Position numbers and translations under genes: made by a program. Below the pieces are notes generated by a model that saw only the letters and a list, made by a program, of their open reading frames with translations, did no database searches and was not told where the DNA came from. 64,000 nt of DNA from Chloroflexota bacterium (GTDB lineage: Bacteria; Chloroflexota; Limnocylindria; Limnocylindrales; CSP1-4), in the NCBI GenBank assembly GCA_044506615.1, contig JBIQKJ010000005.1:67344-131343 (forward strand), read 5' to 3'. Below, piece after piece: positions 36,162-49,982 of this stretch. Numbering within the stretch: position 1 is the stretch's first letter; the number at the start of each line of letters is the position of its first letter.

Positions 36162-37573
36162 GTGAGCCGCCGCGACGACATGCCACGGGACGCGATGCGG
36201 CGAACACGTCGGATGAAGGGGCGCCAGGGCCGTCCGGCACGCCGCCGCCGGTGCATCTCGTGGGTCATGGGGGGCCGGATCCGGGGACGGGGCTCGGTCG
36301 CGACTCGGATGAGCTCGTCGGCATGCGCCTGCGTCCTCGGGTCTGCCATGCGCGCGCGCATGTCCCAGGCGCGCATTCGCTGCTCCTCACGCTCGGACAT
36401 GCGGCCGAGCCGTGCGTCCAGCTCAGCCACGACCCACGCGCGATGGCCGTCGGCGACTCCGTCGGCCGATGGGGCGTACCAGCGCTTGAGCCACGACAGG
36501 TTGGACGAGTCGGCGCGGACTCTCTCCCGAAGCAGTCGCATCAGCCGGCTCGAGCCCGGGTAGCGGGCGAGCGTGAACGCGACCACGTCCTCGTGGGGGA
36601 TCGGGACCTGGCTCAGGCGTTTCACGGAGTCGCGCCCCCTGATCATGTGCTCGAGATCTGCGTCGCTTGGCCAGACCCCGGTCAGCGCGGCATCGAGGGT
36701 CGACTTTCGGAAGCACTTCCAGCACGACCGGCACGGTTCGCCGGGCTGGCCGCGAATGCAGGACTGGACCAGATCACTCCATGGAGAGCCGGTGCAGATG
36801 CGTGCCGTCCCGACCTCGCTCACGCCGGCGACCGGGCTACCGAACTGGAGTCCGACGGCGGCGAATGCCGTCGCCCACGGCACGCGTCGCCGACTCCAGT
36901 CGAGGAACACGGGATGGCCAATCCCGTAGGCGCTCTCGGCGATCACGCCCCAGCTGACCGAGTCGAAGCACCGCTTGTCGGCGAGCAGGACGGCAGCGGC
37001 CGCGTTCGCCCAGTCGGTCGGGAAGCCAACGGCGTTGCGGAGGTGCTCGAAGTCGGACTCGACGACCGACACGAAGCGCCCGTGCCGGGTTTGTAGCTGC
37101 TCGATCGCGTACATCGCGGCGTCGTCACGATAGATGGACCGAATCTCGCCAGCCGGGGGATCGATCCGGCGATGGAAGACAGCCTGGGTGTGGGTCGGCA
37201 TCACGGTCAGCGCGGCGAACGAGTCGGCGCCTCCGCTGAAGGCCAGCGCCGGGAGACCGTCCGCGGGTGTCGACCGTGGTTCGAGCGTGGTGTCGATCGG
37301 TGCCAGATCAACCTTCAGGTGCTCGTGCACGGCGCGCGCGAACGGCTCCGAGACCCCGCGATCGAACGCCAGCGCGTTCGCCCACGGTCGAAGCAGGAGC
37401 ACGACGGCGAGCGCCTCCAGATCTGGGTGAACGTCGTCGGCCACGAGGTCGGCGATCCGGAAACGTGCTTCGAAACGGACCATGTTCCCGCGGGTCCGCT
37501 CGATCGGTTCGCCGTTCTCGGCGACGAAGCGGAAGGTGGGTCCGTCAGCGCCCCAGTCCGTGTGCACCCTCAC
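36158..37573 (-). CDS. PP-loop superfamily ATPase (SGGADS motif) with C-terminal Cys cluster; candidate sugar amidotransferase/amidoligase
   Basis: LAFSGGADSFAAL PP-loop; CIRGQPGEPCRSCWKC; Arg-rich tail. Confidence 0.6.
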   Translation of the reverse strand: MRVHTDWGADGPTFRFVAENGEPIERTRGNMVRFEARFRIADLVADDVHPDLEALAVVLLLRPWANALAFDRGVSEPFARAVHEHLKVDLAPIDTTLEPRSTPADGLPALAFSGGADSFAALTVMPTHTQAVFHRRIDPPAGEIRSIYRDDAAMYAIEQLQTRHGRFVSVVESDFEHLRNAVGFPTDWANAAAAVLLADKRCFDSVSWGVIAESAYGIGHPVFLDWSRRRVPWATAFAAVGLQFGSPVAGVSEVGTARICTGSPWSDLVQSCIRGQPGEPCRSCWKCFRKSTLDAALTGVWPSDADLEHMIRGRDSVKRLSQVPIPHEDVVAFTLARYPGSSRLMRLLRERVRADSSNLSWLKRWYAPSADGVADGHRAWVVAELDARLGRMSEREEQRMRAWDMRARMADPRTQAHADELIRVATEPRPRIRPPMTHEMHRRRRAGRPWRPFIRRVRRIASRGMSSRRLT

Positions 37574-37686
37574 GGCCGGTACTCTACAGGCTCACCTGTG
37601 CGAGCGGCCGCAGCCCCCGCTGCCGTCGACCGGGGCCCACGGCCGTCGTCGAATGCCGACCGCCCGCTCGGCCTATCCTCTCCGGG

Positions 37687-38871
37687 ATGCGCCGTGTCCT
37701 CACCCTGCTTCGCCTCGCCTTGGTCCGGGCGGGCTTCGCCGCCGGTCGCCGGCTCCCGCTCAGGCGTCGGGTCGTGCTCGCAACCGCGCACGCCGAGCGC
37801 ATCTCGGGCAACCTCGAGTTCATCCGCCGCGAGCTCGCAGCCCGGTACCCCGGGCTGCCAGTGACGGTCTTCGCGTTCCGCCAGTCGACCTCGCGAGGTG
37901 GCCGGATCGGGGCGGCGATCAAGGCGCTGCGGTCCGGCTTCCTGCTCGCGACCTCGCGGGTCGTCGTGGTCGACGACTACTTCTTCCCGATCTACGCGGT
38001 CACGCCGCGACCGGGCACGGTGCGCGCGCAGGTGTGGCACGCGTGCGGGGCCTTCAAGAAGTTCGGCTACTCCGTCGTCGAGAAGGAGTTCGGGGCGGAC
38101 GAGGACCTCCTGAAGCACGTCCGCATTCACAGCAACTACGACATCGTCCTGGTCTCGTCCCGGTCGGTCGCCCCGCACTATGCCGAGGCGTTCGACCAGC
38201 CGCTCGAGCTGTTCCGGTCCGATCTGGGCATCCCGCGCACCGACGTCTTCTTCGGGGAGGAGCGGATCGCCGCCACGGCCGCGTCGGTTCGTGCCCGCTA
38301 TGCGATCCCCGCCGACCGGCGGGTCGTCCTGTACGCCCCGACGTTCCGTGGTGCGACGATCGGCCAGGCCGCGCATCCCGCACACCTCGACCTTCCCCGG
38401 ATGCACGAGGCGCTCGGTGACGACCACGTCGTGCTCGTGCGGCTGCACCCGTTCGTCCGTGCCGCCGCGCCGATCCCGCCTGAGCTCGCCGGGTTCGCGA
38501 TCGACGTCTCCGATCACCCCGAGTTCAACGAGCTCCTGCTCGTGACCGACGTGCTCGTGACCGACTACTCGAGCGCGATCTTCGAGTTCGCGTTGCTCGG
38601 CCGGCCGATGGCCTTCCTCGCTCCCGACCATGCCGCCTACGAACGCGAGCGGGGGTTCTACTTCGACTACGCGAGCGGAGTTCCGGGTCCGGTCTTCGAG
38701 ACGACCGACGCACTCGCCGGGTGGCTTCGCTCGGGCGTGGTGGACCTCGATCGAGTCGCGCGCTTCCGGCAGGCGTCGTTCGACGTCGCCGACGGCGGGG
38801 CGACGGCCCGCTTCGTCGACCGCGTCGTCGTGCCCGGACTCCGCGATGGGAGCATCGCGCGTCCCTCCTGA
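37687..38871 (+). CDS. Second TagF/TagB-family alditol-phosphate transferase
   Basis: VVLYAPTFRGATIG and LVRLHPFV motifs. Confidence 0.75.
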   Translation: MRRVLTLLRLALVRAGFAAGRRLPLRRRVVLATAHAERISGNLEFIRRELAARYPGLPVTVFAFRQSTSRGGRIGAAIKALRSGFLLATSRVVVVDDYFFPIYAVTPRPGTVRAQVWHACGAFKKFGYSVVEKEFGADEDLLKHVRIHSNYDIVLVSSRSVAPHYAEAFDQPLELFRSDLGIPRTDVFFGEERIAATAASVRARYAIPADRRVVLYAPTFRGATIGQAAHPAHLDLPRMHEALGDDHVVLVRLHPFVRAAAPIPPELAGFAIDVSDHPEFNELLLVTDVLVTDYSSAIFEFALLGRPMAFLAPDHAAYERERGFYFDYASGVPGPVFETTDALAGWLRSGVVDLDRVARFRQASFDVADGGATARFVDRVVVPGLRDGSIARPS

Positions 38872-38929: not shown

Positions 38930-40741
38930 ATGCTCGCGACCCGCGACGAACCGACCGAGTCCGGCGGCGCCCCGGCGACACCGGAGACTCCGGCGGCACC
39001 CGATTCCCCTCGACCGCAAAAGCGCCGCCCGCGGATCGCGTACCTGTCCTACTCGACGGCCGAGTTCGATTCGCGCACCCAGCGCATGGCCCGCTCGGCA
39101 CTCGACGCGGGCTACGACGTCGTCGTCTACGCACGCTGGCAGCCCGGGGTGCCGCCGACCGAGGAGGCCGACGGGTACCGGATCATCCGCGTTCCGTTCG
39201 ACTGGCGGCTCGCGTTCCCGATCTGGCGACGACGGGCGATGCGCCGTCAGAAGCGCCGGATGGCGGATCCCGCGAACCACGTGCCGAAGCCCGCTCTCCC
39301 GCCGCTCGACGGCGGCACGGACGGAACCGAGCAGGCCGAGGCCGCAGAGGCGGCGGCTGCCGAGGCGGAGGGTGTCGACGAGGCGGAGGGTGTCGACGAG
39401 GCGTCGATGGACCAGGCGGCGGCCATCGGAGCGGGCACGGTTGCGCCCGAGACCGTCGCAGACCCCGCCCTCGGGGCCGCCGAGCACGCCGCTCCGTCCG
39501 ACGAGGACGCCGATCGCGAGTCAGCGGTCGCGGTGCGCCGCCGCAAGCGCGCAACGTTCCTGTGGCGCACCACGAGGCGCCTGCCCCGACCACTGCGTCG
39601 ACCCGCGCTGCGCACCCTCCGGCCGCTGCGCGCGGTGGTTCGCCCGATCTGGCGCGTCGTCCGGTCGCCGAATCGCTCGACCCGCCGCTACCGACCGTCA
39701 CGGCCCGTGAAGCGGACCTCGCCCGAGCTGACCCGAACGATGCGCGGCAAGATCGACCAGTTCCGCCGCCAGGCCATCCTCTTCCCGTTCCGCCCCATGG
39801 GCTGGGCATGGGCGCTCGAGGAGGTCGTCGAGCCGGCCGACGTCTGGCACGGCATGTGGGCGGGCTCGCTCCCGGCGCAGATGCGGCTGCGCAAGCGCTT
39901 CGGTGGCCGCACGATCTACGACAGCCGCGACGTCTACATGCACGCGCGCACCTTCGGCTCGATGGGGCCGACGATGCGCCGCGTGTTCGAGATCGTCGAG
40001 CGCCGCTGGGCCCAGGCCGCCGACACCGTGCTGACCGTCAACGAGGCGTACGCCTCGATCCTCGAGCGCAGCCTGCGCGTGCCGCGACCACCGATCGTGA
40101 TGAACTGCCCGGCACGCTGGACACCGCCCGAGCCGCGCCCGGACCTCCTGCGCGAGGCGATCGGGCTCGATGCGGCGACGCGCGTCGTGCTCTACCAGGG
40201 CAACCTGATGACCGAGCGCGGGATCGAGGAGTCGATGGACGCGATCCTCGACGTGCCGAACGCGGTGCTCGCGCTGCTCGGCTACGGTCCACAGCGGTCG
40301 AACTACGCGGAGCGTGCCGCCGCCCCGCCGTACGCCGGCAAGGTGTTCGTCCTGCCGGCCGTGCCGCCGTCGGAGCTCCTGACCTGGACCGCGAGCGCGG
40401 ACGTCCTCGTGATGGCGATCCAGCCGACGACGCTCAACCATCGATACACGACGCCGCAGAAGCTGTTCGAGGCATGCGCGGCGGGCGTGCCGGTCGTCGC
40501 CTCGGACCTGCCCGGCATGGCGGAGGTCGTCAATGCGACCGGGGCCGGCGTGTTGTGCGACCCGACGTCGCCGGCCGATGTCGCGGCGGCGCTCCGGCGC
40601 GTGCTCGATGCTCCCCCGGAGGAGCGAGCGCGCTGGTCGGGGGCGGCGCTCCAGGCGGCCCACACGACGTACAACTGGGAGACCCAGGTGGAGACGCTGC
40701 TCGACGTCTACCGCCGGCTCGTCGCCGCGGGTCGCGGCTGA
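38930..40741 (+). CDS. GT4-like glycosyltransferase with ~190-aa low-complexity (Ala/Glu/Arg-rich) insertion between the two Rossmann halves
   Basis: N-half RIAYLSYSTAEFDSR...; C-half ...VLYQGNLMTERGIEE...PQKLFEACAAGVPVVASD; insert contains a 2 x 21-bp tandem repeat (~39358-39400). Confidence 0.7.
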   Translation: MLATRDEPTESGGAPATPETPAAPDSPRPQKRRPRIAYLSYSTAEFDSRTQRMARSALDAGYDVVVYARWQPGVPPTEEADGYRIIRVPFDWRLAFPIWRRRAMRRQKRRMADPANHVPKPALPPLDGGTDGTEQAEAAEAAAAEAEGVDEAEGVDEASMDQAAAIGAGTVAPETVADPALGAAEHAAPSDEDADRESAVAVRRRKRATFLWRTTRRLPRPLRRPALRTLRPLRAVVRPIWRVVRSPNRSTRRYRPSRPVKRTSPELTRTMRGKIDQFRRQAILFPFRPMGWAWALEEVVEPADVWHGMWAGSLPAQMRLRKRFGGRTIYDSRDVYMHARTFGSMGPTMRRVFEIVERRWAQAADTVLTVNEAYASILERSLRVPRPPIVMNCPARWTPPEPRPDLLREAIGLDAATRVVLYQGNLMTERGIEESMDAILDVPNAVLALLGYGPQRSNYAERAAAPPYAGKVFVLPAVPPSELLTWTASADVLVMAIQPTTLNHRYTTPQKLFEACAAGVPVVASDLPGMAEVVNATGAGVLCDPTSPADVAAALRRVLDAPPEERARWSGAALQAAHTTYNWETQVETLLDVYRRLVAAGRG

Positions 40742-40852: not shown

Positions 40853-42157
40853 GTGACCCAGGATCGCCGCGTGGCCGTCATCGGCCTTGGCTATGTCGGC
40901 CTGCCGCTCGCCATCGCGTTCGTCGAGGCGGGACTCGACGTCGAGGGCATCGACGCGTCGCCGGCCCGCGTCGCCGAGCTGTGCTCCCGGCGCTCGCCGA
41001 TCGACGACGTCTCCGACGAGCGGCTGTCGGCCGCGTTGGACCGGGGGCTGACGGTGGTTCCCACGATCGACGCCCACCTCCGCGACGCCGACGCCGTGTT
41101 CGTGTGCGTCCCGACCCCGATCACGACGACCAAGGACCCGGACCTCGGACCGGTGCTGTCGGCCGGCGCGTTCATCCGCGAGCACGTCCGGGCGGGTCAG
41201 CTCATCGTCCTGCAGTCGACGACGTACCCCGGGACCACGACCGGGCCGTTCCGGGCCGAGATCGAGCGCAGCGGGCTGAAGGCCGGAACCGACTTCGATC
41301 TCGCGTTCGCCCCGGAGCGCGTCAACCCGGGCGACCCCGCCAGCGCCTCGAAGGGCGTCCCCCGGCTGGTCGGCGCGACGACGCGCGAGGGGACCGCCCG
41401 CGCGGCGGCGCTGCTGCGCAACGTCAACGACCAGGTGGTCGAGCTGTCCTCGCCGGACGCGGCCGAGCTCGCCAAGCTCCTCGAGAACGTCTTCCGCAAC
41501 ATCAACATCGCCTTCGTCAACCAGCTTGCGCTGCTGTGCGAGCGGATGGGCCTCGACGTCTGGGAGGTGATCGACGCCGCCGCGACGAAGCCGTTCGGGT
41601 TCATGCGGTTCACGCCGGGACCGGGCGTCGGTGGGCACTGCATCCCGGTGGACCCCTACTACCTCGCGTGGCGAGCCCGCGAGTTCGACTTCACCGATCG
41701 GTTCATTGAGGCGGCCGGCGACATCAACTTCGCGATGCCCCGGCACGTCGTCGACCTCACCGGTGAGGCGCTCAACGAGCGCGGTCGCGCGATCAAGGGC
41801 TCGAAGGTCGGCGTGCTCGGAGTCGCCTTCAAGCCGAACGTCCAGGACGCCCGCAACTCGCCGGCCGCCGACGTGCTCGCGGGCATCGCCGAGCGCGGCG
41901 CGGAGGTCCGCTTCCACGACCCGCACGTCCCGGAGTTCCGTGACGCGGCGGGTGCGGTTCGGACGAACACGGACCTCGACGAGCTTCTCGGCTGGGCCGA
42001 CGTCGTCGTGGTCGTCACTCCCCACCGGGCGATCGACTGGGACGTCGTCTACGACCGGGCCGATCTCGTCGTCGACACCGTCAACAGCTCGGCGGGACGG
42101 GCCGTTCGGCCGCGCCAGGTCCTGCGTCTCGGAGCCGGCTGGTCGAGCGAGGGCTGA
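40853..42157 (+). CDS. Nucleotide-sugar 6-dehydrogenase (UDP-N-acetyl-D-mannosamine/glucosamine dehydrogenase-like, WecC/WbpA family)
   Basis: VAVIGLGYVGLPLA Rossmann, GGHCIP catalytic Cys, C-terminal UDP-binding domain. Confidence 0.85.
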   Translation: MTQDRRVAVIGLGYVGLPLAIAFVEAGLDVEGIDASPARVAELCSRRSPIDDVSDERLSAALDRGLTVVPTIDAHLRDADAVFVCVPTPITTTKDPDLGPVLSAGAFIREHVRAGQLIVLQSTTYPGTTTGPFRAEIERSGLKAGTDFDLAFAPERVNPGDPASASKGVPRLVGATTREGTARAAALLRNVNDQVVELSSPDAAELAKLLENVFRNINIAFVNQLALLCERMGLDVWEVIDAAATKPFGFMRFTPGPGVGGHCIPVDPYYLAWRAREFDFTDRFIEAAGDINFAMPRHVVDLTGEALNERGRAIKGSKVGVLGVAFKPNVQDARNSPAADVLAGIAERGAEVRFHDPHVPEFRDAAGAVRTNTDLDELLGWADVVVVVTPHRAIDWDVVYDRADLVVDTVNSSAGRAVRPRQVLRLGAGWSSEG

Positions 42158-42201: not shown

Positions 42202-44424
42202 ATGGGCGGCGCCACGCCGGCGAGGGACCGGGCCACGGGTGCCGCCGAACGGGGAGCGTCCGTGACGACCGCGACCACCGCGACGCACGTCCTGCGGATC
42301 AGCCACGCTGCGCGGGCGCCTGGACCCGACGAGGTCGTGCTCGTCACCGACACGACCTGGACACCGCGTGCCGGAGAGGCGCAATCGGGCCGCGTCATCT
42401 CGTTGCGCGATGTCGCCGAGCGCGTGATGCGCGAGCGCGACGTGATCGCCGAGACGGCCGGCCTCCTCGACGACTGGGCCGAGTCGACCGGCATCGCCGA
42501 GCTCCTCGCGGTGGACGGGACCTCGTTCTGGTACGGGATGCGCCTCCGCCACTGGACGTGGCTGCTCGACCAGCTGCTGTGGATCACGATCCTCGACGAC
42601 GTGCTGGCGGGTGCGGGCCCGCGTGCGATCGCGATCGAGCACGGCGTCGACGAGGGCCTCGTCGAGGCGGGACGGCTGGTGGCGGCGCGGGACGGCCTGC
42701 GCTTCGAGCCGCCACCGCCGGTCGCGGTCGCGGCGAGCGCGCCGGCCGGCCCGCCGGCGGCGGATGCGGCCGCTGCGGACGATCTCGACGCCGATCCGCC
42801 GGACCACCAACCGGCCGATCCCCCGGCCGCCGCCAGGGTGTCCGCCCACGCCGACGCACCACGAGCCCCGGTTGCACGCGTGGGCGCGCCTCGTCGGAAG
42901 GGCCAGGGCAAGGGCAGGCGCAGGGGCGGTGCCAGGGGGATCGTGAGGCGGATCCGACGACGGATCAGCGGTGCACGCCAGGAGTCCCAGCGGCTGCCGC
43001 GCGCCCCGGAGCCGCCGCGCGAGCCGATCCTGCAGCGGCTGAACCAGTCCCTGCGCGACCGATTCTTCCCACCGGAGCCGGAGCGCCGCCGACGGCTCGC
43101 GCTCAAGCGCCTCGACAGGATCGCGAACAGCAGGGTCCGGCCGCTGCTCGTCGTCCAGGCGCACGTCCGGCAGCGTGTCGACACGCCCGCCGGCTCACGC
43201 CTCGTCAACACGTACCTCGGCCCGGTCCTGGACCGCCTCCGGGGTTCCGACCTCGATCCGGTCGAGCTCGACATCCGCGGCTTCCTGGAGGACGACGAGA
43301 CATGGGAGCGGCTCCGGGAGCAGGGCGGTGAGCGGATGCTGCCGGCCGACGTCCTCACGATCGCCCAGGAGGATCCGGTCGTCCCGGGGCTGAAGGAGCG
43401 CGCAGCCGCCCTCTCGAACCGCCTCGCGACGCTCGACGCCCCGCTCGTCGTGTCCGGCATCGACCTGGGACCCGCGCTGGCGCGCCGCGTCGCCCAGCGC
43501 TCGCGTGCCGCGCTCGTCCGGGCGATCGTCGATGTCGAGCGCATCAGGCGGCTGATCCGGCGCATCCGGCCGGCCGGGATCCTGCTGGCGGACGAGTACC
43601 ACCGCCAGGACTGGCTCGCGGCCGCCGCGCGGGAGCGGATCCCGACCGCAGCCATCCAGCACGGCGTCATCTACCGTTGGCACACCGGGTACATCCACCG
43701 GACGCGACCCGCCTCGTTGCGGCTGCCGAACCGCACCTACGTCTTCGGTGAGTGGGAGCGCGACCTGCTGGTCACGCACAGCGTGTACCGGCCCGACGAG
43801 GTCGTCGTCGGTGGCTCGCCACGGCTCGACCTCCACGATCCCGGGCCCGTCGACCGGGAGGCCGTCCGCGCGGAGATCGGCGTCGACCCTGAGGACCGGA
43901 TGGTCGTGCTCTCGGGCACCTGGGGGCCCATGTACCGCCGATTCCACTACCCGATCGCGCTCGCGCGCCTGTTCGACCGGAGCGTCGAACGCGTCCACCT
44001 GGTCGTCAAGCTCCATCCGTCCGAGCGGGACGAAGGACCGTACCGGGAGGCGATCGAGCGCCTGGCCGCCGCTCGCGGGTTCGCGCCGCCCCGGATCTCG
44101 GTGGTGCAGCGGGTGGATCTCTACCGGCTGCTCGCGGCGGCCGATGCCCACCTCGGGATCCACTCCACGGTCCTCACCGAGGCCGTCGTGACCGGCACGC
44201 GGAACCTCCTGGCGGACGTGCTCGCGGCGAGCGACCTGCTGGGCTACGTCGACGCGGGAGCCGCACACCCGGTCCGCTGCGCCGACGACCTCGAGGCCGC
44301 CCTCGCGCGCCCGCGCGAGGCGCTCACGTCGGGTTCGGCGCGTGAGGCGTTCCTGCGCGCGCACTTCGAGCCGGGGGAGGCCAGCCGCCGGATCGCGGAC
44401 GACCTCCTGGCATGGCTGCGCTGA
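42202..44424 (+). CDS. Large GT-B-like polymer-synthesis protein with TagF/KpsC-S-like C-terminal domain; candidate nonulosonate or alditol-phosphate transferase
   Basis: C-terminal VVLSGTWGPMYRRF...LVVKLHPSERDE echoes the YAPTxR / KxHP motifs of the two TagF homologues; translationally coupled to the downstream NeuA-NeuB fusion. Confidence 0.55.
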   Translation: MGGATPARDRATGAAERGASVTTATTATHVLRISHAARAPGPDEVVLVTDTTWTPRAGEAQSGRVISLRDVAERVMRERDVIAETAGLLDDWAESTGIAELLAVDGTSFWYGMRLRHWTWLLDQLLWITILDDVLAGAGPRAIAIEHGVDEGLVEAGRLVAARDGLRFEPPPPVAVAASAPAGPPAADAAAADDLDADPPDHQPADPPAAARVSAHADAPRAPVARVGAPRRKGQGKGRRRGGARGIVRRIRRRISGARQESQRLPRAPEPPREPILQRLNQSLRDRFFPPEPERRRRLALKRLDRIANSRVRPLLVVQAHVRQRVDTPAGSRLVNTYLGPVLDRLRGSDLDPVELDIRGFLEDDETWERLREQGGERMLPADVLTIAQEDPVVPGLKERAAALSNRLATLDAPLVVSGIDLGPALARRVAQRSRAALVRAIVDVERIRRLIRRIRPAGILLADEYHRQDWLAAAARERIPTAAIQHGVIYRWHTGYIHRTRPASLRLPNRTYVFGEWERDLLVTHSVYRPDEVVVGGSPRLDLHDPGPVDREAVRAEIGVDPEDRMVVLSGTWGPMYRRFHYPIALARLFDRSVERVHLVVKLHPSERDEGPYREAIERLAAARGFAPPRISVVQRVDLYRLLAAADAHLGIHSTVLTEAVVTGTRNLLADVLAASDLLGYVDAGAAHPVRCADDLEAALARPREALTSGSAREAFLRAHFEPGEASRRIADDLLAWLR

Positions 44425-46139
44425 GCAGTCCGCTCCTGTTCCTCGTGCCGGCGCGCGCCGGCAGCGTTCGGGTCCCGGGCAAGAACCTGCGGCTCGTGGC
44501 GGGCATCCCGCTCGTCGGGTGGGGGATCCGGATCGCACGGCTCGCGGCGGCACGGCTGCCCGGCGGACCGCACGTCGTCGCCTGCAGCACCGACGACGCG
44601 GAGATCGGAGCGGTTGCCACGGCCTGGGGCGCGGACGCGATCATCGCCCGGCCGCCCGCGCTTGCAACGGCGACCGCGACCTCGGTCGATGTCGCGATCC
44701 ACGCGCTCGACGAGCTGGCAACCCCCGGCTCCATGTTCCGTGCGGTCGTGCTCGTCCAGGCCACCTCCCCGCTGACCCATCCCGGGGACATGGTCGCGGC
44801 CGTCGAGCGCTTCGATGGCGGCGCCGACTCGGTGGTGAGCGTCACGCCCAGTCACCCGGCCGCGTGGCACCTGGGGCTCGAGGCCGGCGAGGGCGCCGAC
44901 GCGCACGACGATGTCCTCACCGGCGCCTTCTACGTCGTCGCGCCCGAGGTCCTGCGGACCCGGCGCCGGTTCGTCGAACCCGGGCGCACGGAGCCGTTCC
45001 GGGTCCCGCCCGATCGCTCGATCGACGTCGACGAGCCGCTCGACCTCGTGCTCGCCGAGGGCATCCTGGCGGCGCGCCCGGTCCGGCCGCTGTCGATCGG
45101 GGACCGTGCCGTCGGCGGGGGCCGAGCGTTCGTCATCGCGGAGGCCGGGGTCAACCACGACGGCCGCCCCGAGCTCGCCCATCGCCTGGTCGACGCGGCG
45201 GCGGACGCCGGCGCCGACGCCGTCAAGTTCCAGACGTTCGACCCCGCGGCGCTGGCCGCCGCCGACGCCCCGACCGCCGACTACCAGCGATCGCGCGGCG
45301 AGACCGGGAGCCAGCGGGCGATGCTCGAGCGGCTCGCGCTGCCCGCGGACGCCTGGCTCGCACTCCAGGCGCACGCCCGCGAGCGCGGTCTCGCCTTCCT
45401 CTCGACACCGTTCGACCTGGTGTCGGCGGACCTGCTCGATCGGCTCGACGTTCCCGCATTCAAGGTCGGCTCGGGCGAGCTCACGAACATCCCGTTCCTC
45501 GCGGCGCTCGCCCGTCGGGGCCGCCCGATGCTGGTCTCGACCGGGATGGCGACGATGGTCGAGGTCGCCGACGCCGTGGACGCGATCGCCTCGGCGGGCG
45601 ACCCGCCGCTCGCGCTGTTCCACTGCGTGTCGAGCTACCCGGCACGGCCGGAGGACGCCAACCTGCGGGCGATCGAGACCATGCGGCGCGCGTTCGGCGT
45701 GCCGGTCGGCTGGTCCGACCACACGCTCGGCGTCGAGCTCCCGCTGGCGGCGGTCGCCGCGGGCGCCGTGCTCGTCGAGAAGCACGTGACGCTCGACCGC
45801 ACGATGCCGGGTCCCGACCACGCGGCCTCGCTCGAGCCGGGGGAGCTGCGCGCGATGGTCGTCGGGATCCGGGCCGTCGAGGCCGCGCTCGGCACGGGGC
45901 GCAAGGAGCCCGTCCCGGCCGAGCAGCCGATCGCGCGCGTCGCCCGCCGCAGCCTCCATTGGCGGCGCGCCCTTCCCGCCGGCGCCGTGATCGCGGAGGC
46001 GGACCTCGTTGCGCTGCGCCCGGGGACCGGGCTGTCGCCGGCCCGCGCGGCGGGCCTGGTGGGTCGCCGCACACGACGCGCGGTGGAGGCGGGAGCGCTG
46101 GCCCTCGAGGACGACGCCGAGCCCGGGACGCCGCGGTGA
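44412..46139 (+). CDS. Fused acylneuraminate cytidylyltransferase (NeuA/LegF-like) + N-acylneuraminate-type nonulosonate synthase (NeuB/LegI-like)
   Basis: N-terminal LVPARAGSVRVPGKN (CMP-sugar synthetase motif); C-terminal AFVIAEAGVNHDG, KFQTF and SAF domain. Confidence 0.85.
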   Translation: MAALSSPLLFLVPARAGSVRVPGKNLRLVAGIPLVGWGIRIARLAAARLPGGPHVVACSTDDAEIGAVATAWGADAIIARPPALATATATSVDVAIHALDELATPGSMFRAVVLVQATSPLTHPGDMVAAVERFDGGADSVVSVTPSHPAAWHLGLEAGEGADAHDDVLTGAFYVVAPEVLRTRRRFVEPGRTEPFRVPPDRSIDVDEPLDLVLAEGILAARPVRPLSIGDRAVGGGRAFVIAEAGVNHDGRPELAHRLVDAAADAGADAVKFQTFDPAALAAADAPTADYQRSRGETGSQRAMLERLALPADAWLALQAHARERGLAFLSTPFDLVSADLLDRLDVPAFKVGSGELTNIPFLAALARRGRPMLVSTGMATMVEVADAVDAIASAGDPPLALFHCVSSYPARPEDANLRAIETMRRAFGVPVGWSDHTLGVELPLAAVAAGAVLVEKHVTLDRTMPGPDHAASLEPGELRAMVVGIRAVEAALGTGRKEPVPAEQPIARVARRSLHWRRALPAGAVIAEADLVALRPGTGLSPARAAGLVGRRTRRAVEAGALALEDDAEPGTPR

Positions 46140-47326
46140 GCGCGGCAGGAAGCGAGGGCAGCCGGCCGGTGTGTCGGGTGGCGGTCCTGACGACGGGCCG
46201 CCAGGATTGGGGGATCCTCCGCTCGACCTGCGAGGCGCTTCGGGACACCCCCGGCATCGAGCTCCGTGTGCTTGCCGGCGGGATGCACCTCTCGAATCGG
46301 CACGGTCGAACCGTCGAGCGTGTCCGGGAGGCAGGTTTCGAGCCCGTCGAGCTGGCGTGGCTGTCCGAGGCCGGCGACGACGCCCCGGATCGCCAGGCCG
46401 CCGAGGCCCTGGCGCGGATCGGGGAGGCGCTCCGGGACGATCCGCCCGACGCGCTGGTCCTCGTCGGGGATCGCTTCGAGACCGCCGCAGCGGCGTTGGC
46501 CGCGACCCTGGCCCGGGTCCCGATCGTCCATCTCCACGGCGGCGAGCAGTCGCTCGGCGCGTTCGACGACGCCCTCCGGCACGCGATCACGAAGCTCGCC
46601 CACCTCCACCTCGTGAGCGCCGACGAGCACGCTCACCGCGTCGTCGCGCTCGGCGAGGACCCGGGGAGCGTCCGCGTCGTCGGGGCCCCGGGTCTCGACA
46701 ACGCCTTCCGAGCCGACCTGCCGGACCGTGCGGCGCTCGAACGCGAGCTCGGGATCGCGCTCGTGCCGCCAGTCGTCCTCGTGACGGTCCACCCCGCCAC
46801 GCTCGACCCGGATCCGGCCGCGGTCGCCGACGCGGTCGCGGCTGCGATGGCTGCCGTCCCGGCGACGTACGTCGTGACGCTGCCGAACGTCGATCCGGGC
46901 GGGGAGCGGGTCCGCTCCACGCTCGTCGCGTCCGTGTCCGCGATCAGGGCAGCGGGGACCCCGGCTGTGGCGGTCGAGGCGCTCGGCGAGGTCCGCTACT
47001 GGGGGCTGCTGCGCCTCGCGGACGCGCTGCTCGGGAACAGCTCGAGCGGACTCGTCGAGGCGCCCGCCCTCCGCGTGCCGGCCGTGAACGTCGGCGATCG
47101 GCAGGCGGGTCGACTGCGCTGGCCGAGCGTCGTCGATGCGCCGGCCGACGCGCGTGCCGTGACCGAAGCGCTCCGCACGGCGCTCGACCCCGCCTTCCGA
47201 GACGGGCTCGACGGCGCGTCGACGCCGCTGGCGGACGGTCGGGCCGGGCGGCGCGTTGCCGATATCATCGCGGCATGGCGACCGACCAGGCCACCGCGCA
47301 AGCCGCCGGTCCGGATCGAGGGGTGA
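46136..47326 (+). CDS. UDP/GDP-N-acetylglucosamine 2-epimerase (hydrolysing), NeuC/LegG-like
   Basis: GTGA start/stop overlap; VHLHGGE, DRFET motifs of non-hydrolysing/hydrolysing 2-epimerase family. Confidence 0.8.
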   Translation: MSAAGSEGSRPVCRVAVLTTGRQDWGILRSTCEALRDTPGIELRVLAGGMHLSNRHGRTVERVREAGFEPVELAWLSEAGDDAPDRQAAEALARIGEALRDDPPDALVLVGDRFETAAAALAATLARVPIVHLHGGEQSLGAFDDALRHAITKLAHLHLVSADEHAHRVVALGEDPGSVRVVGAPGLDNAFRADLPDRAALERELGIALVPPVVLVTVHPATLDPDPAAVADAVAAAMAAVPATYVVTLPNVDPGGERVRSTLVASVSAIRAAGTPAVAVEALGEVRYWGLLRLADALLGNSSSGLVEAPALRVPAVNVGDRQAGRLRWPSVVDAPADARAVTEALRTALDPAFRDGLDGASTPLADGRAGRRVADIIAAWRPTRPPRKPPVRIEG

Positions 47327-47943
47327 CGCGCCGATCGCTCGTGATCCTCGGGGCGGGCGGTCACGCTCGCGTCGTTGCGGACGCCGCCCGCTCGGACCCG
47401 ACGGCGTGGGACTCGGTGGAGCTCGTCGACGCCGACGGGGACGCAGCGCTGCTGACACGGCTCCGGGAGCTGCCCGGCGACGAGCGGCCTGCGCTGGTGC
47501 TCGGCTTCGGTGCAACCCCGGCCGGCCGAAGGGCGGCGGTCGAGTGGTTCGGTGACACGGCGCGCTGGGCGTCGATCGTTCACGCGACCGCCTCCGTTTC
47601 GCCGAGCGCGGTGATCGAGCCCGGCGCGGTGGTGCTCGCTCGGGCGGTCGTGAACGCAGGCGCGACCGTCGGCCGCCACGCGATCGTCAACAGCGGCGCG
47701 ATCGTCGAGCACGACAGCGTGGTCGGCGCGTTCGCCCACCTCGCGCCCGGCGCTGTGCTCGGCGGCGGCGCGGCGGTCGGGGATCGCGCGACGATCGGCA
47801 TGGGCGCGCTGATCCGCGACCATCGGACCGTCGGGGAGGACGCGGTTGTCGGGATGGGCGCGGTGGTCGTGCGCGACGTGCCGCTCGGTCGGACGGTCGT
47901 CGGCAACCCCGCCGGTCCGCTGCGCGGCCGGCGGCCGGGCTGA
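47323..47943 (+). CDS. NeuD/LegH-like hexapeptide-repeat sugar N-/O-acetyltransferase
   Basis: LVILGAGGHARVV N-terminal Rossmann-like then LbH repeats; start GTG 47323 (alternatively ATG 47275). Confidence 0.7.
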   Translation: MTRRSLVILGAGGHARVVADAARSDPTAWDSVELVDADGDAALLTRLRELPGDERPALVLGFGATPAGRRAAVEWFGDTARWASIVHATASVSPSAVIEPGAVVLARAVVNAGATVGRHAIVNSGAIVEHDSVVGAFAHLAPGAVLGGGAAVGDRATIGMGALIRDHRTVGEDAVVGMGAVVVRDVPLGRTVVGNPAGPLRGRRPG

Positions 47944-47946: not shown

Positions 47947-48984
47947 ATGGAGGGCTCGTTCCGAGACTGTCTCGTCTCCGAGGCGGGATCCATCCGCGAC
48001 GCGATGCGTGCGGTCGATCGCGGCGCGAGCGGGATCGCCCTCGCGGTGGACGACCGCGGCCGGCTCGTCGGCGTGGCCACGGACGGCGACCTCCGCCGCG
48101 CGCTGCTCGCCGGCACCGACCTCGGCGAGCCGCTCGCTCCGTCGCTCAACCGCTCGTTCGTCGCGCTGCGCCCCGGCCAGACCCGCTCGGACATCCTCGA
48201 GCTCATGCAGGCCCGCCGGATCCAGGCGATCCCGATCGTCGACGATCACGGGAGGCCGATCGGGCTCCACCTGCTGCGCACGTTCCTCACCGCGACGCCA
48301 CGCACGAACTGGGCGGTCATCATGGCCGGCGGACGTGGGGAGCGCCTGCGACCGCTCACCGATTCGATCCCGAAACCGATGCTTCGCGTCGCCGGCCGAC
48401 CCATCCTCGAACGGATCATCCTCCACCTCGTCGGCTTCGGGATCTCGCGGGTGTTCATCTCGATCGGGTACCAGGGGCACGTGATCGAGGGCCACTTCGG
48501 CGACGGCCACGCGTTCGGCTGCTCCATCGAGTACGTCCGCGAGGAGGAGCCGCTCGGGACCGCGGGCGCGCTCGCGCTCCTGCCCGAGCCGCCGAGCGAG
48601 CCGCTGCTGCTGCTCAACGGCGACCTCGTCACGAACGTCGACGTCGATGCGCTGTTCACGTTCCACGAGACCGGCGGCTACGCGGCGACGATCGGCACGC
48701 GACGGTACGTCCACACGATCCCGTTCGGGTGCGTCGAGCGGGACGAGGGACGCGTCGTCGGGCTCGTCGAGAAGCCGGCGATCGCGCGCGAGGTGAACGC
48801 CGGGATCTACGTCGTGGAGCCGTCGGTGGTGGCGCGGGTGCCCGTGGGCGAACCGAGCACGATGCCGGGGCTCCTCGAGGGCCTCATCGCCGACGGGCGC
48901 CCGGTCGGGGCGTTCGAGATCGACGGCGACTGGATCGACGTCGGGCAGCGCGACGAGCTGAACCGGGCGCGGGAGGGAACGTGA
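47947..48984 (+). CDS. CBS-domain-containing sugar-1-phosphate nucleotidyltransferase (PtmE-like GlcN-1-P guanylyltransferase candidate)
   Basis: Tandem CBS motifs then VIMAGGRGERLRPLTDSIPKP nucleotidyltransferase motif. Confidence 0.8.
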   Translation: MEGSFRDCLVSEAGSIRDAMRAVDRGASGIALAVDDRGRLVGVATDGDLRRALLAGTDLGEPLAPSLNRSFVALRPGQTRSDILELMQARRIQAIPIVDDHGRPIGLHLLRTFLTATPRTNWAVIMAGGRGERLRPLTDSIPKPMLRVAGRPILERIILHLVGFGISRVFISIGYQGHVIEGHFGDGHAFGCSIEYVREEEPLGTAGALALLPEPPSEPLLLLNGDLVTNVDVDALFTFHETGGYAATIGTRRYVHTIPFGCVERDEGRVVGLVEKPAIAREVNAGIYVVEPSVVARVPVGEPSTMPGLLEGLIADGRPVGAFEIDGDWIDVGQRDELNRAREGT

Positions 48985-49982
48985 GCGGAGCGTTGCGCGG
49001 CGTCCCGGTCCTCGTGACCGGCGCCGACGGGTTCATCGGCAGCCACCTCGTCGAGCGCCTCGTCACCGAGGGCGCGTCGGTCCGCGCGTTCTGCGTCTAC
49101 AACTCGCGCGGGTCGGCCGGCTGGCTCGACACGGTCCCGGCCGAGGTTCGGCGGGCCTGCGACATCCGGCTCGGCGACGTGCGCGACGCCCGGTTCGTCG
49201 AGCGCGCCGCCGAGGGGATCGAGGTCGTCTTCCACCTCGCTGCGCTGATCGCGATCCCGTACTCCTACATCGCGGCCGAGTCGTTCGTCGAGACCAACGT
49301 GCGGGGCACGCTCAACGTCCTCGAGGCGGCCCGGCGGGCGGGGGTGCGCCGGCTCATCGAGACGTCCACGAGCGAGGTCTACGGAACCCCCGAGCACCTG
49401 CCGATCCGCGAGACGCACCCGCTCAATGCCCAGTCGCCGTACGCGGCGTCGAAGGTCGCCGCCGACCAGCTGTCGCTCGCCTTCCACCGCTCGTTCGACC
49501 TGCCGGTCGTCGTGCTGCGGCCGTTCAATACGTTCGGGCCGCGCCAGTCCGAGCGGGCCGTGCTCGCGACGATGCTCCGTCAGCTCCTCGACGGCCGGCC
49601 GGAGATCCGTCTCGGGCGGCTGGACACGCGGCGCGACATGACCTACGTCGCGGACACCGTCGACGGGTTCATCCGGGCGGCGACCGCCGATGGGATCGAC
49701 GGGCGCACGATTCAGCTCGGCACCGGGCGGACCGAATCGATCGGCGAGCTGCTGGCGATTGCGCGGCGGTTGACCGGCTCGAACGCCGAGGTCGTCGAGG
49801 ATGCCGACCGGCTGCGGCCCGACGCGAGCGAGGTCCTCGTCCTCCAATCCGACCCGACGCTCGCCCGCGAGCTGTTGGGCTGGGAGGCGCGGACGTCGCT
49901 CGAGGACGGGATCGCGGCGATGATCGACTGGCTGCGGTCGCAGCCGGCGTCGCCCGACGAGGTCGTGCGTGTCCAGCTCTGA
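48981..49982 (+). CDS. NAD-dependent extended SDR epimerase/dehydratase (candidate NDP-GlcNAc 4,6-dehydratase, LegB-like)
   Basis: VLVTGADGFIGSHL, YAASK catalytic motif; GTGA overlap with upstream gene. Confidence 0.8.
   Translation: MSGALRGVPVLVTGADGFIGSHLVERLVTEGASVRAFCVYNSRGSAGWLDTVPAEVRRACDIRLGDVRDARFVERAAEGIEVVFHLAALIAIPYSYIAAESFVETNVRGTLNVLEAARRAGVRRLIETSTSEVYGTPEHLPIRETHPLNAQSPYAASKVAADQLSLAFHRSFDLPVVVLRPFNTFGPRQSERAVLATMLRQLLDGRPEIRLGRLDTRRDMTYVADTVDGFIRAATADGIDGRTIQLGTGRTESIGELLAIARRLTGSNAEVVEDADRLRPDASEVLVLQSDPTLARELLGWEARTSLEDGIAAMIDWLRSQPASPDEVVRVQL

Follow-up and report, generated by a model that had tools for sequence, protein, structure and literature searches.

The reading frame studied here, which lies between a WecC/TviB-like dehydrogenase gene and a NeuA-NeuB fusion gene in the window (the whole stretch of 64,000 nucleotides that was analyzed), probably encodes an inverting CMP-nonulosonate (CMP-NulO) transferase of uncultured soil and freshwater Chloroflexota that works with a GT4 glycosyltransferase. 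We consider it reasonably likely that this protein, hereafter the candidate transferase, is a cytoplasmic peripheral GT-B enzyme that moves legionaminic acid (Leg) from CMP-Leg to a growing lipid-linked glycan. The preliminary description had proposed a TagF-like GT-B protein that acts as a CMP-nonulosonate transferase, and this proposal is supported by the predicted fold, by kinship to the BFO_1060 and TIGR04396 families and to TarL, and by linkage to NulO genes.

Enzymes that attach Leg or Pse are among the least known glycosyltransferases. Named examples in the literature consulted here are the Maf proteins, which act on flagellin, KpsS1 (GT118; PMC12887879), and a genetically defined pair from Tannerella (PMC5420450). 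As of 2020, according to one study, a Leg transferase had yet to be reported from bacteria (PMC7439481). The family described here is large, unnamed and without a Pfam model. In different phyla its genes occur next to Leg and Pse pathways, and fusions with GT4 are frequent. The family offers candidates for the chemo-enzymatic synthesis of Leg and Pse glycans as well as a natural series of Leg versus Pse specificity. Its assignment would also provide initial insight into an acidic glycopolymer of the wall in a class of Chloroflexota that is uncultured, and would correct the database labels “hypothetical” and “CDP-glycerol glycerophosphotransferase.”

The gene and its surroundings

The 740-aa reading frame initially reported on the forward strand is confirmed by the list of open reading frames and by a GC3 of 0.91. 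It is a real gene, with GC contents at the three codon positions (0.79/0.53/0.91) that are usual for genes of this 73% GC DNA. A recorded protein (P0001) is 100% identical to it and has 720 aa, and a GGGGAG Shine-Dalgarno sequence is located 5 nt upstream of GTG 42262; therefore, the true start may be this GTG and the true length 720 aa. A Pfam search of the protein (E<=0.01) returned zero matches, and no transmembrane segment was predicted in it.

The gene ends with TGA 44422-44424 and overlaps the next reading frame, which opens with ATG 44412, by 13 nt. Both this overlap and the identity of the next frame as a NeuA-NeuB fusion agree with the preliminary description: the same 13-nt overlap is present in an independent gene call (Logan contig), and the fusion protein consists of CTP_transf_3 (aa 10-134) and NeuB (aa 259-498) domains followed by SAF. 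Overlaps recur in 26 of the 36 related loci that have NeuA downstream (13 nt in 20, 4 nt in 6), which exceeds chance, with the caveats that the start codon at -13 arises from the nearly invariant codon of Trp738 (xTGG) and that [A/G]TGA at -4 is also present in many related loci; in this window, the -13 ATG is the only canonical NeuA start. Judged by their family matches, the genes 3' of the candidate transferase constitute a full GDP-GlcNAc-type legionaminic acid pathway (Table 1). Within it, the PtmE role is one that we presume from the two domains and by reference to the C. jejuni Leg pathway, and the LegB-type frame, which opens at 48729, likely starts at GTG 48981 with a 4-nt overlap with the PtmE-like stop.

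On the other side, the best equivalogs of the WecC/TviB-like protein are UDP-ManNAc dehydrogenases, with scores below their cut-off, and the GT4 protein has an N-terminal region of ~270 aa that includes an acidic-then-basic disordered insert. The alditol-phosphate genes reported further upstream are indeed present: a TarI/TarJ-like fusion (IspD+SDR) accompanies two genes of TagF type, which match PF04464 with E 4e-73 and 1e-66. TarL/TagF-like gene A, whose frame opens at 37267 and likely starts at ATG 37687, is situated upstream of the GT4 gene and is not a conserved partner; the divergent operon is likewise not conserved with the family of the candidate transferase. Also upstream in the window are genes for a GT2 enzyme and for a surface protein of 760 aa.

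Table 1. Features of the candidate transferase and of its neighborhood, with positions in the window
Feature	Position	Strand	Details
Polymer exporter: TagH/Wzt ATPase 30529-31341, Wzm/TagG ABC-2 permease 31341-~32231	30529..32231	-	
Divergent operon: DUF6395 36158-37573, TarI-TarJ-like fusion 34638-36161, TagF-like B 33517-34643	33517..37573	-	
TarL/TagF-like alditol-phosphate transferase A	37687..38871	+	PF04464 4e-73; TarL 198 bits, below cut-off
GT4 glycosyltransferase, conserved, often fused partner	38930..40741	+	PF00534, PF13692
WecC/TviB-like NDP-N-acetylhexosamine 6-dehydrogenase, conserved partner	40853..42157	+	TIGR03026 393 bits
Candidate CMP-legionaminic acid glycosyltransferase	42202..44424	+	740 aa from ATG 42202; 720 aa if GTG 42262
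N-terminal alpha/beta accessory domain, aa ~30-170	42289..42711	+	pLDDT >90 in both AF2 models
Disordered Pro/Ala-rich linker, aa ~171-275	42712..43026	+	By composition
Predicted GT-B catalytic core, aa ~300-740, two Rossmann-like halves	43099..44421	+	AF2 pLDDT mostly >90
Glu465 in ADEYH segment, candidate general base	43594..43596	+	E in 41/42, D in 1/42 aligned members
Gln486-His487-Gly488, candidate catalytic His	43657..43665	+	42/42 aligned members
SGTWG, aa 571-575, counterpart of TagF-family APTFRG phosphate-binding loop	43912..43926	+	S571 is S or T in 41/42 aligned members
KLHPSE, aa 603-608: K-x-H-P, “HP” motif common to CMP-donor GT-B enzymes	44008..44025	+	K603, H605, P606 in 42/42 aligned members
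NeuA (CMP-NulO synthetase)-NeuB (NulO synthase) fusion	44412..46139	+	PF02348, PF03102, SAF; NeuB_NnaB 396 bits
LegG/NeuC-type hydrolysing 2-epimerase	46136..47326	+	TIGR03568 330 bits, above cut-off; gene call in L001
LegH/NeuD-PglD-type N-acetyltransferase	47323..47943	+	TIGR03570 175 bits, above cut-off
CBS + nucleotidyltransferase, putatively PtmE-like (GDP-GlcNAc route)	47947..48984	+	PF00571, PF00483
LegB-type 4,6-dehydratase	48981..49982	+	TIGR04180 409 bits
LegC-type aminotransferase	49969..51138	+	TIGR04181 401 bits
LCP (LytR-CpsA-Psr) glycopolymer-peptidoglycan ligase	57003..58496	-	PF03816; TIGR00350 104 bits, above cut-off

Predicted fold, motifs, and family relationships

The AF2 model of the candidate transferase (pLDDT 86, pTM 0.83) places it in the GT-B glycosyltransferase superfamily, with two predicted Rossmann-like domains and C-terminal helices that cross back. 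A Foldseek search of the PDB agrees with this prediction and with the fold first proposed: it returned 267 chains at E<=1e-3, and the best 50 of these are all GT-B-fold proteins. Neither TagF (structure 3L7I) nor KpsC is among these best 50 of 267 matches. The GT-B core is the portion kept in all fusion proteins of the family. It is preceded by a linker with an acidic first half and a strongly basic second half (RRKGQGKGRRRGGARGIVRRIRRRI), where pLDDT falls below 50 at aa 184-265, and by the N-terminal alpha/beta domain, for which a PDB fold search gave no structural match (best E 0.037). In this domain W92, W110, and R114 are conserved; one family member (P0059) has a GNAT domain in its place.

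An alignment of 42 family members (23-100% identity) revealed that W110, Q486, H487, G488, G516, G538, K603, H605, P606, and S655 are invariant, and that R114 and E465 are each found in 41 of the 42. Glu465 is followed by Y or G and may correspond to the D/E-D/E-G motif found in bacterial sialyltransferases, with a possible catalytic role; the acidic element of the family reads x-E-Y/G rather than strictly D/E-D/E-G. In the comparison with the epimerase CapG, Glu465 aligns with the Asp of GDT, and Gln486-His487-Gly488, which is kept also in relatives from 40-51% GC contigs, aligns with MEAG, such that the catalytic Glu of the epimerase becomes His. The TagF homologues of the window contain QVWHA at a place that we infer, rather than align by tool, to be comparable. 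In the C-terminal half, SGTWG aligned to ILFAPTFRG of TarL and to the window TagF homologues, and KLHPSE aligned to FKMHP of TarL and to RLHP and KTHP of the same homologues. The NulO transferases of T. forsythia, like sialyltransferases, are known to contain an HP motif (PMC5420450). The preliminary description had spoken of one LSGTWG/KLHPSE signature shared with the TagF homologues. The two strings do occur in the candidate transferase (aa 570-575 and 603-608), but the signature is not identical: the TagF homologues carry YAPTFRG and RLHPF or KTHPN, different strings at homologous positions (S/A-x-T and K/R-x-H-P).

The family, whose members have ~640 aa, numbers 200 clusters at E<1e-30 and >1200 at E<1e-10. 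The closest sequence families are BFO_1060, the Pse/Leg transferases of T. forsythia, and TIGR04396, with weak matches below threshold. The best NCBIfam match of the candidate transferase is TIGR04396 (E 6e-9, 35.5 bits, cut-off 125), followed by BFO_1060_trans (NF046086; E 2.6e-4, 20.2 bits, cut-off 200), both in the HP region. Among the 42 diverse members, 33 match TIGR04396 and 21 match BFO_1060, and 10 more distant members, which match the family profile with E between 1e-41 and 1e-55, reach 2e-22 for BFO_1060_trans and 5e-18 for TIGR04396; their best scores, 79.9 and 65.5 bits, are likewise under the respective cut-offs of 200 and 125. The TIGR04396 matches of the distant relatives cover both GT-B halves; this “surface carbohydrate biosynthesis protein” model carries no assigned function and speaks for kinship, not for mechanism. 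The nearest sequence of solved structure is TarL (8va1, E 0.0028), aligned in the C-terminal half at GxPRxD, SxT, KxHP, and D..S-S/T..E.

BFO_1060 is the orthologue, in strain 92A2, of Tanf_01245 and TFUB4_00887. T. forsythia mutants deleted for these genes lose the Pse or Leg derivative at the end of the O-glycan (PMC5420450); this evidence for NulO transfer is genetic, not enzymatic. The candidate transferase resembles these proteins in its TagB/TagF-like GT-B architecture, in its HP motif and possibly in an acidic element akin to D/E-D/E-x, and in being encoded with a CMP-Pse or CMP-Leg locus, with members paired with either sugar. The acceptor in T. forsythia is a HexNAc-uronic acid (ManNAcA), and a WecC-like dehydrogenase is conserved beside the candidate transferase. 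It differs in scoring 20-80 bits across its family against the BFO_1060 cut-off of 200, in length (640-740 aa versus a 365-position model, with the N-terminal domain and disordered linker in addition), and in setting: T. forsythia caps protein O-glycans, whereas the present family belongs to Chloroflexota with Wzm/Wzt and LCP genes and is often fused to GT4.

Kinship to KpsC and KpsS, which had also been suggested, does not extend beyond the shared H-P region. The KpsC/KpsS/WbbB/KpsS1/KrkA enzymes (GT107, GT99, GT118, GT140) are retaining and use CMP-activated ulosonic acid donors; KpsS1 transfers Pse, and a QxxxKD motif with an Asp nucleophile marks the KpsC/KpsS type (PMC12887879). A regular-expression search of the candidate transferase found no QxxxKD, and PF05159 does not match it. 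Weak PF05159 or KpsS matches around the HP region occur in a few distant relatives (PF05159 in 2 of 10, E 0.002-0.003). Unlike the KpsC group, the candidate transferase is predicted to be a plain GT-B enzyme and expected to be inverting, without double displacement.

Conserved genomic context

The 79 related loci are almost all from Ca. Limnocylindria (Chloroflexota). The actinomycete framing of the preliminary description does not fit this distribution, as all near relatives come from Ca. Limnocylindria/Chloroflexota MAGs with common downstream synteny. A NeuB homologue is found within 10 kb in 53 of the 67 Limnocylindria loci, and in ~25 loci the family member is followed by a full Leg pathway on the same strand. 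Another set of loci contains a PseB/PseC/PseG/PseI cassette instead and retains the module of dehydrogenase, GT4, and transferase. In the family tree, members from Leg and Pse contexts are largely apart. Three distant relatives (23-28% identity, on contigs of 40-51% GC) are also located within NulO clusters.

Among the partners, the WecC-like dehydrogenase is present in 43/67 loci (~75% identity), the GT4 gene in 35/67, and Wzm/Wzt homologues within 10 kb in ~31/79. TagF-like genes were found in 2/79 loci and TarI in 1/79, in a count of CDP-alditol partners that covered these two gene types. The idea of a polymer in which Leg alternates with, or caps, alditol phosphate is thus not supported; the conserved dehydrogenase, GT4, and Wzm/Wzt genes instead indicate a phosphate-free uronic-acid/NulO glycan, which also suits the term “teichulosonic-acid-like” better than an alditol polymer does. 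Teichulosonic acids of actinomycetes, such as the Kdn polymer of Streptomyces coelicolor (SCO4873-SCO4882), are comparable as phosphate-free acidic NulO wall polymers in envelopes of monoderm type that also have an LCP ligase, features that are predicted for the present locus as well; the S. coelicolor polymer differs in phylum and in containing Kdn, not Leg or Pse.

GT4 orthologues (~60% identity) are fused N-terminally to proteins like the candidate transferase in at least 10 proteins. The W and Y capsule polymerases of N. meningitidis similarly unite a GT4 hexosyltransferase and a sialyltransferase in one chain, with the NulO domain assigned to GT97. The joining of GT4 and a candidate CMP-nonulosonate transferase in one polypeptide, as in N. 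meningitidis, suggests a polymer in which the two units alternate, [hexose-type sugar - NulO]n. Unlike in N. meningitidis, the two domains are separate genes in the window, with the dehydrogenase gene between them, and the polymerase role is putative.

Proposed mechanism and alternatives

The NeuA-NeuB fusion, to which the candidate transferase is translationally coupled, and the downstream pathway of six genes would supply CMP-Leg, from which the candidate transferase would pass Leg onto the growing lipid-linked glycan. The C-terminal Rossmann half would hold the CMP leaving group through K-x-H-P, S-x-T, and D...S-T...E, which are common to TagF/TarL, and the general base would come from the N-terminal half (His487 of Q-H-G and/or Glu465) in a metal-independent, inverting transfer from CMP-beta-Leg to alpha-Leg. 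The GT4 two genes upstream, which elsewhere is part of the same polypeptide, would be the working partner, and the neighboring WecC-like dehydrogenase would likely supply the second sugar as an N-acetylhexosaminuronic acid. The resulting glycan would be acidic and free of phosphate, and would consist of either [sugar-NulO]n repeats or a chain capped with NulO. The Wzm/Wzt (TagGH-like) ABC transporter would export this glycan, and the LCP ligase of the window would link it to peptidoglycan. More tentatively, the candidate transferase and GT4 may form a dedicated polymerase of an alternating uronic-acid (or hexose)/Leg phosphate-free wall polymer, a teichulosonic-acid analogue, and the family may be an unrecognized, CAZy-level group of inverting Leg/Pse transferases that switched between Leg and Pse donors at least twice. 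In B. subtilis, the TagB-like protein SpsB, which is encoded beside a Leg pathway, is dispensable for Leg transfer (PMC7439481); therefore, adjacency and a TagB-like domain are no proof of a Leg transferase.

A somewhat unlikely alternative, which nonetheless survives best, is that the NulO transferase acts outside a wall polymer, either by capping a protein O-glycan (of an S-layer or other protein, as in Tannerella) or by adding a chain-terminating residue that is read by the ABC transporter, as beta-Kdo is in WbbB systems. The sole validated relatives cap a protein O-glycan on ManNAcA, and a WecC-like dehydrogenase is a conserved neighbor here; the surface protein and GT2 genes upstream, and one distant relative with a Wzx flippase instead of Wzm/Wzt, point in the same direction. 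Against this, the single-chain GT4-transferase fusions look more like bifunctional polymerases than like cappers, the window holds an LCP ligase and a TagGH-like exporter, and an unsystematic look noticed no oligosaccharyltransferase.

It is improbable that the protein is a TagF/TarL-type phosphotransferase that transfers ribitol phosphate or glycerol phosphate from a CDP-alditol donor to the polymer as a third teichoic-acid enzyme and neighbors the Leg genes only through a shared locus. The enzymes of the TagF/TarL/TagB group (PF04464; 8VA1) share with it the GT-B fold, CMP as the presumed leaving group, and K/R-x-H-P and (A/S)-x-T in the C-terminal half; TarL is the closest sequence of solved structure, and four C-terminal TagF motifs align. 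Two of the 10 distant relatives pass the PF04464 gathering score of 22.1 bits (P0252 with 28.7, P0255 with 32.7), and one relative is labelled CDP-glycerol glycerophosphotransferase family protein by NCBI. The window also encodes a TarI/TarJ-like CDP-ribitol synthase, and the TarL-like gene stands at the head of the same-strand run of the candidate transferase, so that a CDP-ribitol role is possible on sequence alone. However, PF04464 does not match the candidate transferase itself, its family profile scores the two window TagF homologues at 21 and 11 bits (3-sequence search), hhalign against TagF A gives a probability of 1%, and the relatives score higher against BFO_1060 (up to 80 bits) than against PF04464 (at most 33 bits). 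The N-terminal halves share a His after Gln (Q-H-G versus Q-x-W-H) and are otherwise not alignable: the QxWHxxGxxK of both window TagF homologues (QVWHACGAFKKFG, QVWHAVGALKRFG) is missing, and the candidate transferase has Q-H-G-x-I-Y (IQHGVIYRWHTGY). The expected donor is a CMP-sugar and not CDP-alditol, consistent with the scarcity of CDP-alditol genes compared with NeuB in related loci and with a Leg/Pse cassette swap that tracks the family phylogeny.

Finally, a GT-B-fold sugar-nucleotide 2-epimerase (a WecB/MnaA analogue providing UDP-ManNAc to the WecC-like dehydrogenase) is very improbable. In its favor, the resemblance in fold is real, and UDP-GlcNAc 2-epimerases make up nearly all of the top 25 Foldseek matches (E values as low as 6.5e-11, with TM to target ~0.6); the NeuC-type epimerase of the window gives the best of three hhalign probabilities (43%), distant relatives show sub-threshold PF02350 (best 29.6 bits versus GA 30.6), and the gene is directly 3' of the dehydrogenase gene in a window where WecB was not seen. 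Against it, Foldseek resolves GT-B subfamilies poorly (GT1, GT4, GT5, and pseudo-GT chains score nearly alike), PF02350 does not match the protein, an epimerase is not expected to co-vary with Leg versus Pse or to overlap the start of a CMP-NulO synthetase, and the CapG profile alignment places the invariant His487 where (H/M)-E-A-G of the epimerase has its catalytic Glu.

Sequence family and predicted fold

The 740-residue protein is probably a CMP-legionaminic acid (Leg) glycosyltransferase, a reading from sequence that draws on C-terminal nucleotide-binding motifs common to TagF/TarL and the Tannerella nonulosonic acid (NulO) transferases, whose leaving group is CMP, on coupling to a CMP-NulO synthetase gene, and on tracking of the type of the adjacent NulO cassette. 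Since G+C content is 70–76% throughout the window, genes were picked by codon-position GC, and the values of this ORF (GC1/2/3 of 0.79/0.53/0.91) are comparable to those of other real genes there. A recorded protein of 720 aa (P0001) is 100% identical to it and starts at GTG 42262, which has GGGGAG upstream with a 5-nt spacer, whereas ATG 42202 lacks a comparable site. Because residues 1–24 are, in addition, disordered in the AlphaFold2 model, the protein is either 720 or 740 aa long.

Pfam gave no match at E ≤ 0.01, and NCBIfam gave two weak, sub-threshold matches in the HP region, TIGR04396 (6e-9) and NF046086, "BFO_1060 family glycosyltransferase" (2.6e-4), neither of which is mentioned in the literature searched. 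A word-indexed search returned 135 relatives, mostly of 640–690 aa and without a Pfam domain, and HMMER, run exhaustively over 1.84 billion representatives, yielded 200, 1210, and 3294 clusters at E<1e-30, E<1e-10, and E<1e-3, respectively. Ten full-length members from farther out in the family (E 1e-41 to 1e-55) reach E-values as low as 2e-22 against BFO_1060_trans and 5e-18 against TIGR04396, and match PF04464, PF02350, and PF05159 only weakly. In an alignment of 42 diverse relatives (A2; 23–100% identity), TIGR04396 matches 33/42 sequences and BFO_1060 21/42. Invariant positions are W110, Q486-H487-G488, G516, G538, K603, H605-P606, and S655, with E465 present in 41/42; the QHG and KLHP motifs are retained in relatives from contigs of 40–51% GC.

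Against PDB sequences, phmmer with the protein and hmmsearch with a 56-sequence profile found nothing meaningful (a spurious augmin match only), and reaching TarL took the more diverse A2 profile. This matched one TagF-family structure, TarL 8va1 (E 0.0028), across all of the C-terminal Rossmann half, pairing GsPRlD with GVPRTD, the S-x-T loop with APTFRG, VKlHP with FKMHP, and D..hSTVLtEAV with D..YSSLIYEYAV. The second match was the epimerase CapG (E 0.007), whose M-E-A-G stands opposite the invariant Q-H-G, which puts His487 in place of the catalytic Glu of the epimerase. The LSGTWG (residues 570–575) and KLHPSE (603–608) motifs named in the preliminary description were both found; that the two TagF homologues in the window carry the same signature is only loosely true, as theirs read YAPTFRG and RLHPF/KTHPN. 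Comparison of the family with single window sequences by hhalign (TagF_A 1%, GT4 4%, NeuC 43%) is uninformative, the templates being single sequences.

The AlphaFold2 model, built on the 56-sequence alignment, has a pLDDT of 86 and a pTM of 0.83, and no transmembrane segment was found (the 19-residue Kyte–Doolittle mean peaks at 1.3). Foldseek matched it to 267 PDB chains at E ≤ 1e-3; the best 50 of the 267 are all GT-B-fold, headed by UDP-GlcNAc 2-epimerases (E 6.5e-11, TM ~0.6 on the query) and followed by VldE, CalG glycosyltransferases, and GlgM. TagF and KpsC are not among these best 50, which are filled by generic GT-B chains (epimerases, GT1, VldE). Modeled alone (pLDDT 94), the N-terminal domain had no significant fold match in the PDB (best E 0.037). 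The GT-B fold described earlier is thus upheld by AlphaFold2 and Foldseek, and likeness to TagF is confined to the nucleotide-binding half. The QxxxKD motif of the KpsC type is absent, and a retaining mechanism of that type was rejected; the protein is not an enzyme of the KpsC/KpsS type.

Gene neighborhood and NulO cassettes

Gene calls and Pfam/NCBIfam matches agree with the earlier account of the neighbors. Upstream on the same strand lie genes for a WecC-like NDP-sugar dehydrogenase, a GT4 glycosyltransferase, and a TarL-like protein; DUF6395, a TarI/TarJ-like fusion, and a second TagF-like gene are divergently transcribed. The genes from the NeuA–NeuB fusion to LegC form what we take to be, from family names and the C. 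jejuni pathway, a complete GDP-GlcNAc-type Leg route.

Features of the window and of the candidate transferase
Feature	Position	Strand	Remarks
MreB, MreC, RmlA, RmlB, RmlD and following genes	16966-25775	+	upstream of island
Region without codon-position GC signal	29860-30340		~480 bases
WD40 beta-propeller protein	32431-33468	+	345 aa
TagF_B, TagF-like	33517-34643	-	ORF 33517-35211; probable start ATG 34641 (4-nt overlap with TarIJ stop)
DUF6395 protein	36158-37573	-	471 aa; Pfam E 3e-52; no NCBIfam match; first in divergent operon
TagF_A, TarL/TagF-like	37687..38871	+	ORF 37267-38871; probable start ATG 37687
GT4 glycosyltransferase	38930-40741	+
WecC-like dehydrogenase	40853-42157	+
Candidate Leg transferase	42202..44424	+	740 aa
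Alpha/beta domain	aa 30-170		AlphaFold2
Disordered Pro/Ala-rich linker	aa 171-275 (42712-43026)	+	first half acidic, second half very basic
Two-Rossmann GT-B core	~aa 300 to C-terminus		AlphaFold2
NeuA–NeuB fusion	44412-46139	+
NeuC/LegG-type epimerase	46136-47326	+
NeuD/LegH acetyltransferase	47323-47943	+
CBS-nucleotidyltransferase (PtmE-like)	47947-48984	+
LegB	48981-49982	+	ORF 48729-49982; probable start GTG 48981 (4-nt overlap with PtmE stop)
LegC	49969-51138	+
PPIase protein, then MazG	51170-54154	+	602 aa, three parvulin domains, SurA-like N-terminus; directly after Leg pathway

For LegB, TagF_A, and TagF_B, mechanical ORFs are far longer than the genes. The 13-nt overlap between the transferase stop and the next ATG was confirmed, and a gene caller drew the same overlap on an independent Logan contig. 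Among 36 related loci, 20 share the 13-nt overlap and 6 have one of 4 nt. The −13 start of NeuA (44409-44424 in the window; the same junction in 20 loci) is made up of the final base of the codon before Trp738 and the first two bases, TG, of the conserved Trp738 codon itself (xTGG). An [A/G]TGA at −4 is present as well in many loci; in the window, the −13 ATG alone is canonical. NeuA may thus truly start at different sites in different genomes, and under either start the two ORFs are tightly coupled. A promoter and terminator scan of 36–55 kb of the window found no signal exceeding shuffles, and operon boundaries were drawn from spacing and overlaps only.

With each GTDB species represented by one genome, a scan yielded 79 loci with a homologue, nearly all in MAGs of Ca. 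Limnocylindria/Limnocylindrales or "uncultured Chloroflexia", with a few labeled Anaerolineaceae, Verrucomicrobiia, or Polyangia. Several keep the downstream synteny of the window, the PPIase and MazG genes lying at the same offsets (24/67 and 14/67 loci). The actinomycete framing of the preliminary description is not supported by this taxonomy, and an actinomycete origin was rejected on the same grounds and on the shared Limnocylindria synteny. The window almost certainly comes from Limnocylindria, an uncultured class of ~69% GC (PMC10608941), and the literature searched contains no link of NulOs to Chloroflexota or Limnocylindria. A tblastn search of PLSDB plasmids with the GT-B core gave no match.

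Of 67 loci, those with a given gene within 10 kb of the homologue number 53 for NeuB, 43 for the WecC-like dehydrogenase (~75% identity), 43 for LegC-like, 42 for LegB-like, 35 for GT4, and 31 for NeuA, and in ~25 loci the homologue is directly followed, on its own strand, by the entire Leg pathway. In a second group of loci, NeuB has ~50% identity and is encoded on the opposite strand; in one locus (L049), that cassette consists of PseB, PseC, PseG, and PseI, with Wzm, dehydrogenase, GT4, and a GNAT-fused transferase kept upstream. Relatives at 23–28% identity likewise lie inside NulO clusters (three loci): one adjoins a Wzx flippase and a PseBCFGHI-like set, another adjoins NeuB, CTP_transf_3, and DegT genes, and the third directly follows PtmE-, LegB-, and LegC-like genes. 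A neighbor-joining tree built on the GT-B core largely separates proteins of Leg context from those of Pse context, with at least two switches.

A Pse-type cassette on the opposite strand, at ~+3 to +10 kb, replaces the Leg cassette in 13 Limnocylindria loci (L003, L004, L016, L037, L044, L047, L049, L050, L058, L059, L065, L075, L079) that otherwise keep the dehydrogenase–GT4–transferase module, which looks like natural swapping of NulO cassettes.

Orthologues of the window GT4 (~60% identity) are fused N-terminally to complete relatives of the transferase in at least 10 distinct proteins of 980–1200 aa, a classical Rosetta-stone link by which both should act on the same product. In P0059 (L049:7865-11845), a GNAT acetyltransferase domain takes the place of residues 30–170, which we therefore regard as an accessory domain outside the catalytic core; P0061 carries ~165 extra residues with GNAT matches C-terminal to the transferase-like part. 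These GNAT fusions hint that the transferred sugar is also O- or N-acetylated in a coupled step. The window GT4 has its own acidic-then-basic disordered insert, closely resembling the transferase linker. Both inserts are long, Ala/Glu/Asp-rich and then Arg-rich, and this shared style may represent a membrane- or polymer-tethering device.

Proposed reaction and alternative readings

In the proposed reaction, the CMP phosphate would be held by the K-x-H-P histidine and the hydroxyls of S-x-T and S655, His487 and/or Glu465 would serve as general base, and inverting transfer would give alpha-Leg. The partner GT4 would add the sugar to which Leg is attached, or which is itself attached to Leg. Judging from the adjacent dehydrogenase, this second sugar may be a HexNAc-uronic acid, recalling the ManNAcA acceptor of Tannerella. 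Since the window contains a TagH/Wzt ATPase, a Wzm/TagG permease, and an LCP ligase, the glycan is probably assembled in the cytoplasm on a lipid carrier, passed out through the ABC transporter, and then linked to peptidoglycan; Wzm/Wzt occur in ~31/79 related loci. Leg could be internal, in a repeating polymer that resembles teichulosonic acid, or could cap the chain end, and the fusions lean to a polymerase. A role in capping with Leg or in a protein glycan, rather than in a wall polymer, is a variant compatible with the main reading and a tentative option.

Less likely, and in our judgment improbable, is a TagF-type phosphotransferase. The TarL match and the local TarL and TarIJ genes speak for it, but the N-half signature is missing, kinship to the NulO-transferase family is stronger, and CDP-alditol genes are not conserved: TagF-like genes occur in 2/79 related loci and TarI in 1/79. 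By the same counts, the previously predicted alditol-phosphate/Leg copolymer is no family-wide property and is possible for this genome only. A WecB-like epimerase, to which the Foldseek ranking and the position behind the WecC-like gene would point, is very improbable given the Glu-to-His replacement and the covariation with NulO type.

The Leg-transferase reading is unsurprising in kind, the idea having been predicted in the preliminary description. In strain 92A2, the orthologue of Tanf_01245 and TFUB4_00887 is BFO_1060. The former two are TagB-like proteins, and when they are deleted the T. forsythia O-glycan loses its terminal Pse or Leg derivative, the acceptor being ManNAcA (PMC5420450). 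The window protein is related to them by sequence and, as proposed, alike in mode of action, but it falls below the NF046086 cut-off, is twice as long, and differs in architecture and context. SpsB of B. subtilis counsels caution, as it is TagB-like and adjoins a Leg pathway, yet is dispensable for Leg transfer (PMC7439481). Few Leg or Pse transferases are described in the literature; the large, unnamed, and consistently placed family offers a testable set of candidates for both, and also a possible two-domain polymerase.

Other genes and regions of the window

DUF6395 shares its operon with a TagF-like gene and the TarI/TarJ-like fusion, which suggests a role in ribitol-phosphate polymer synthesis; it occurs in 0/79 related loci. 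The WD40 gene, with the Wzm/Wzt exporter genes on one side and the TagF operon on the other, is an unusual neighbor of glycopolymer genes. The region between the hexapeptide acyltransferase and TagH-like ATPase genes, where no frame shows a codon-position GC signal, may be non-coding or a degraded gene. Upstream of the island, the MreB-to-RmlD genes are followed by two others, one for a surface protein of 760 aa that has FlgD_ig and CHU_C domains and one for a GT2 similar to polyprenyl-phosphate sugar synthases. Most of the 64-kb window can be described as a cell-envelope region.
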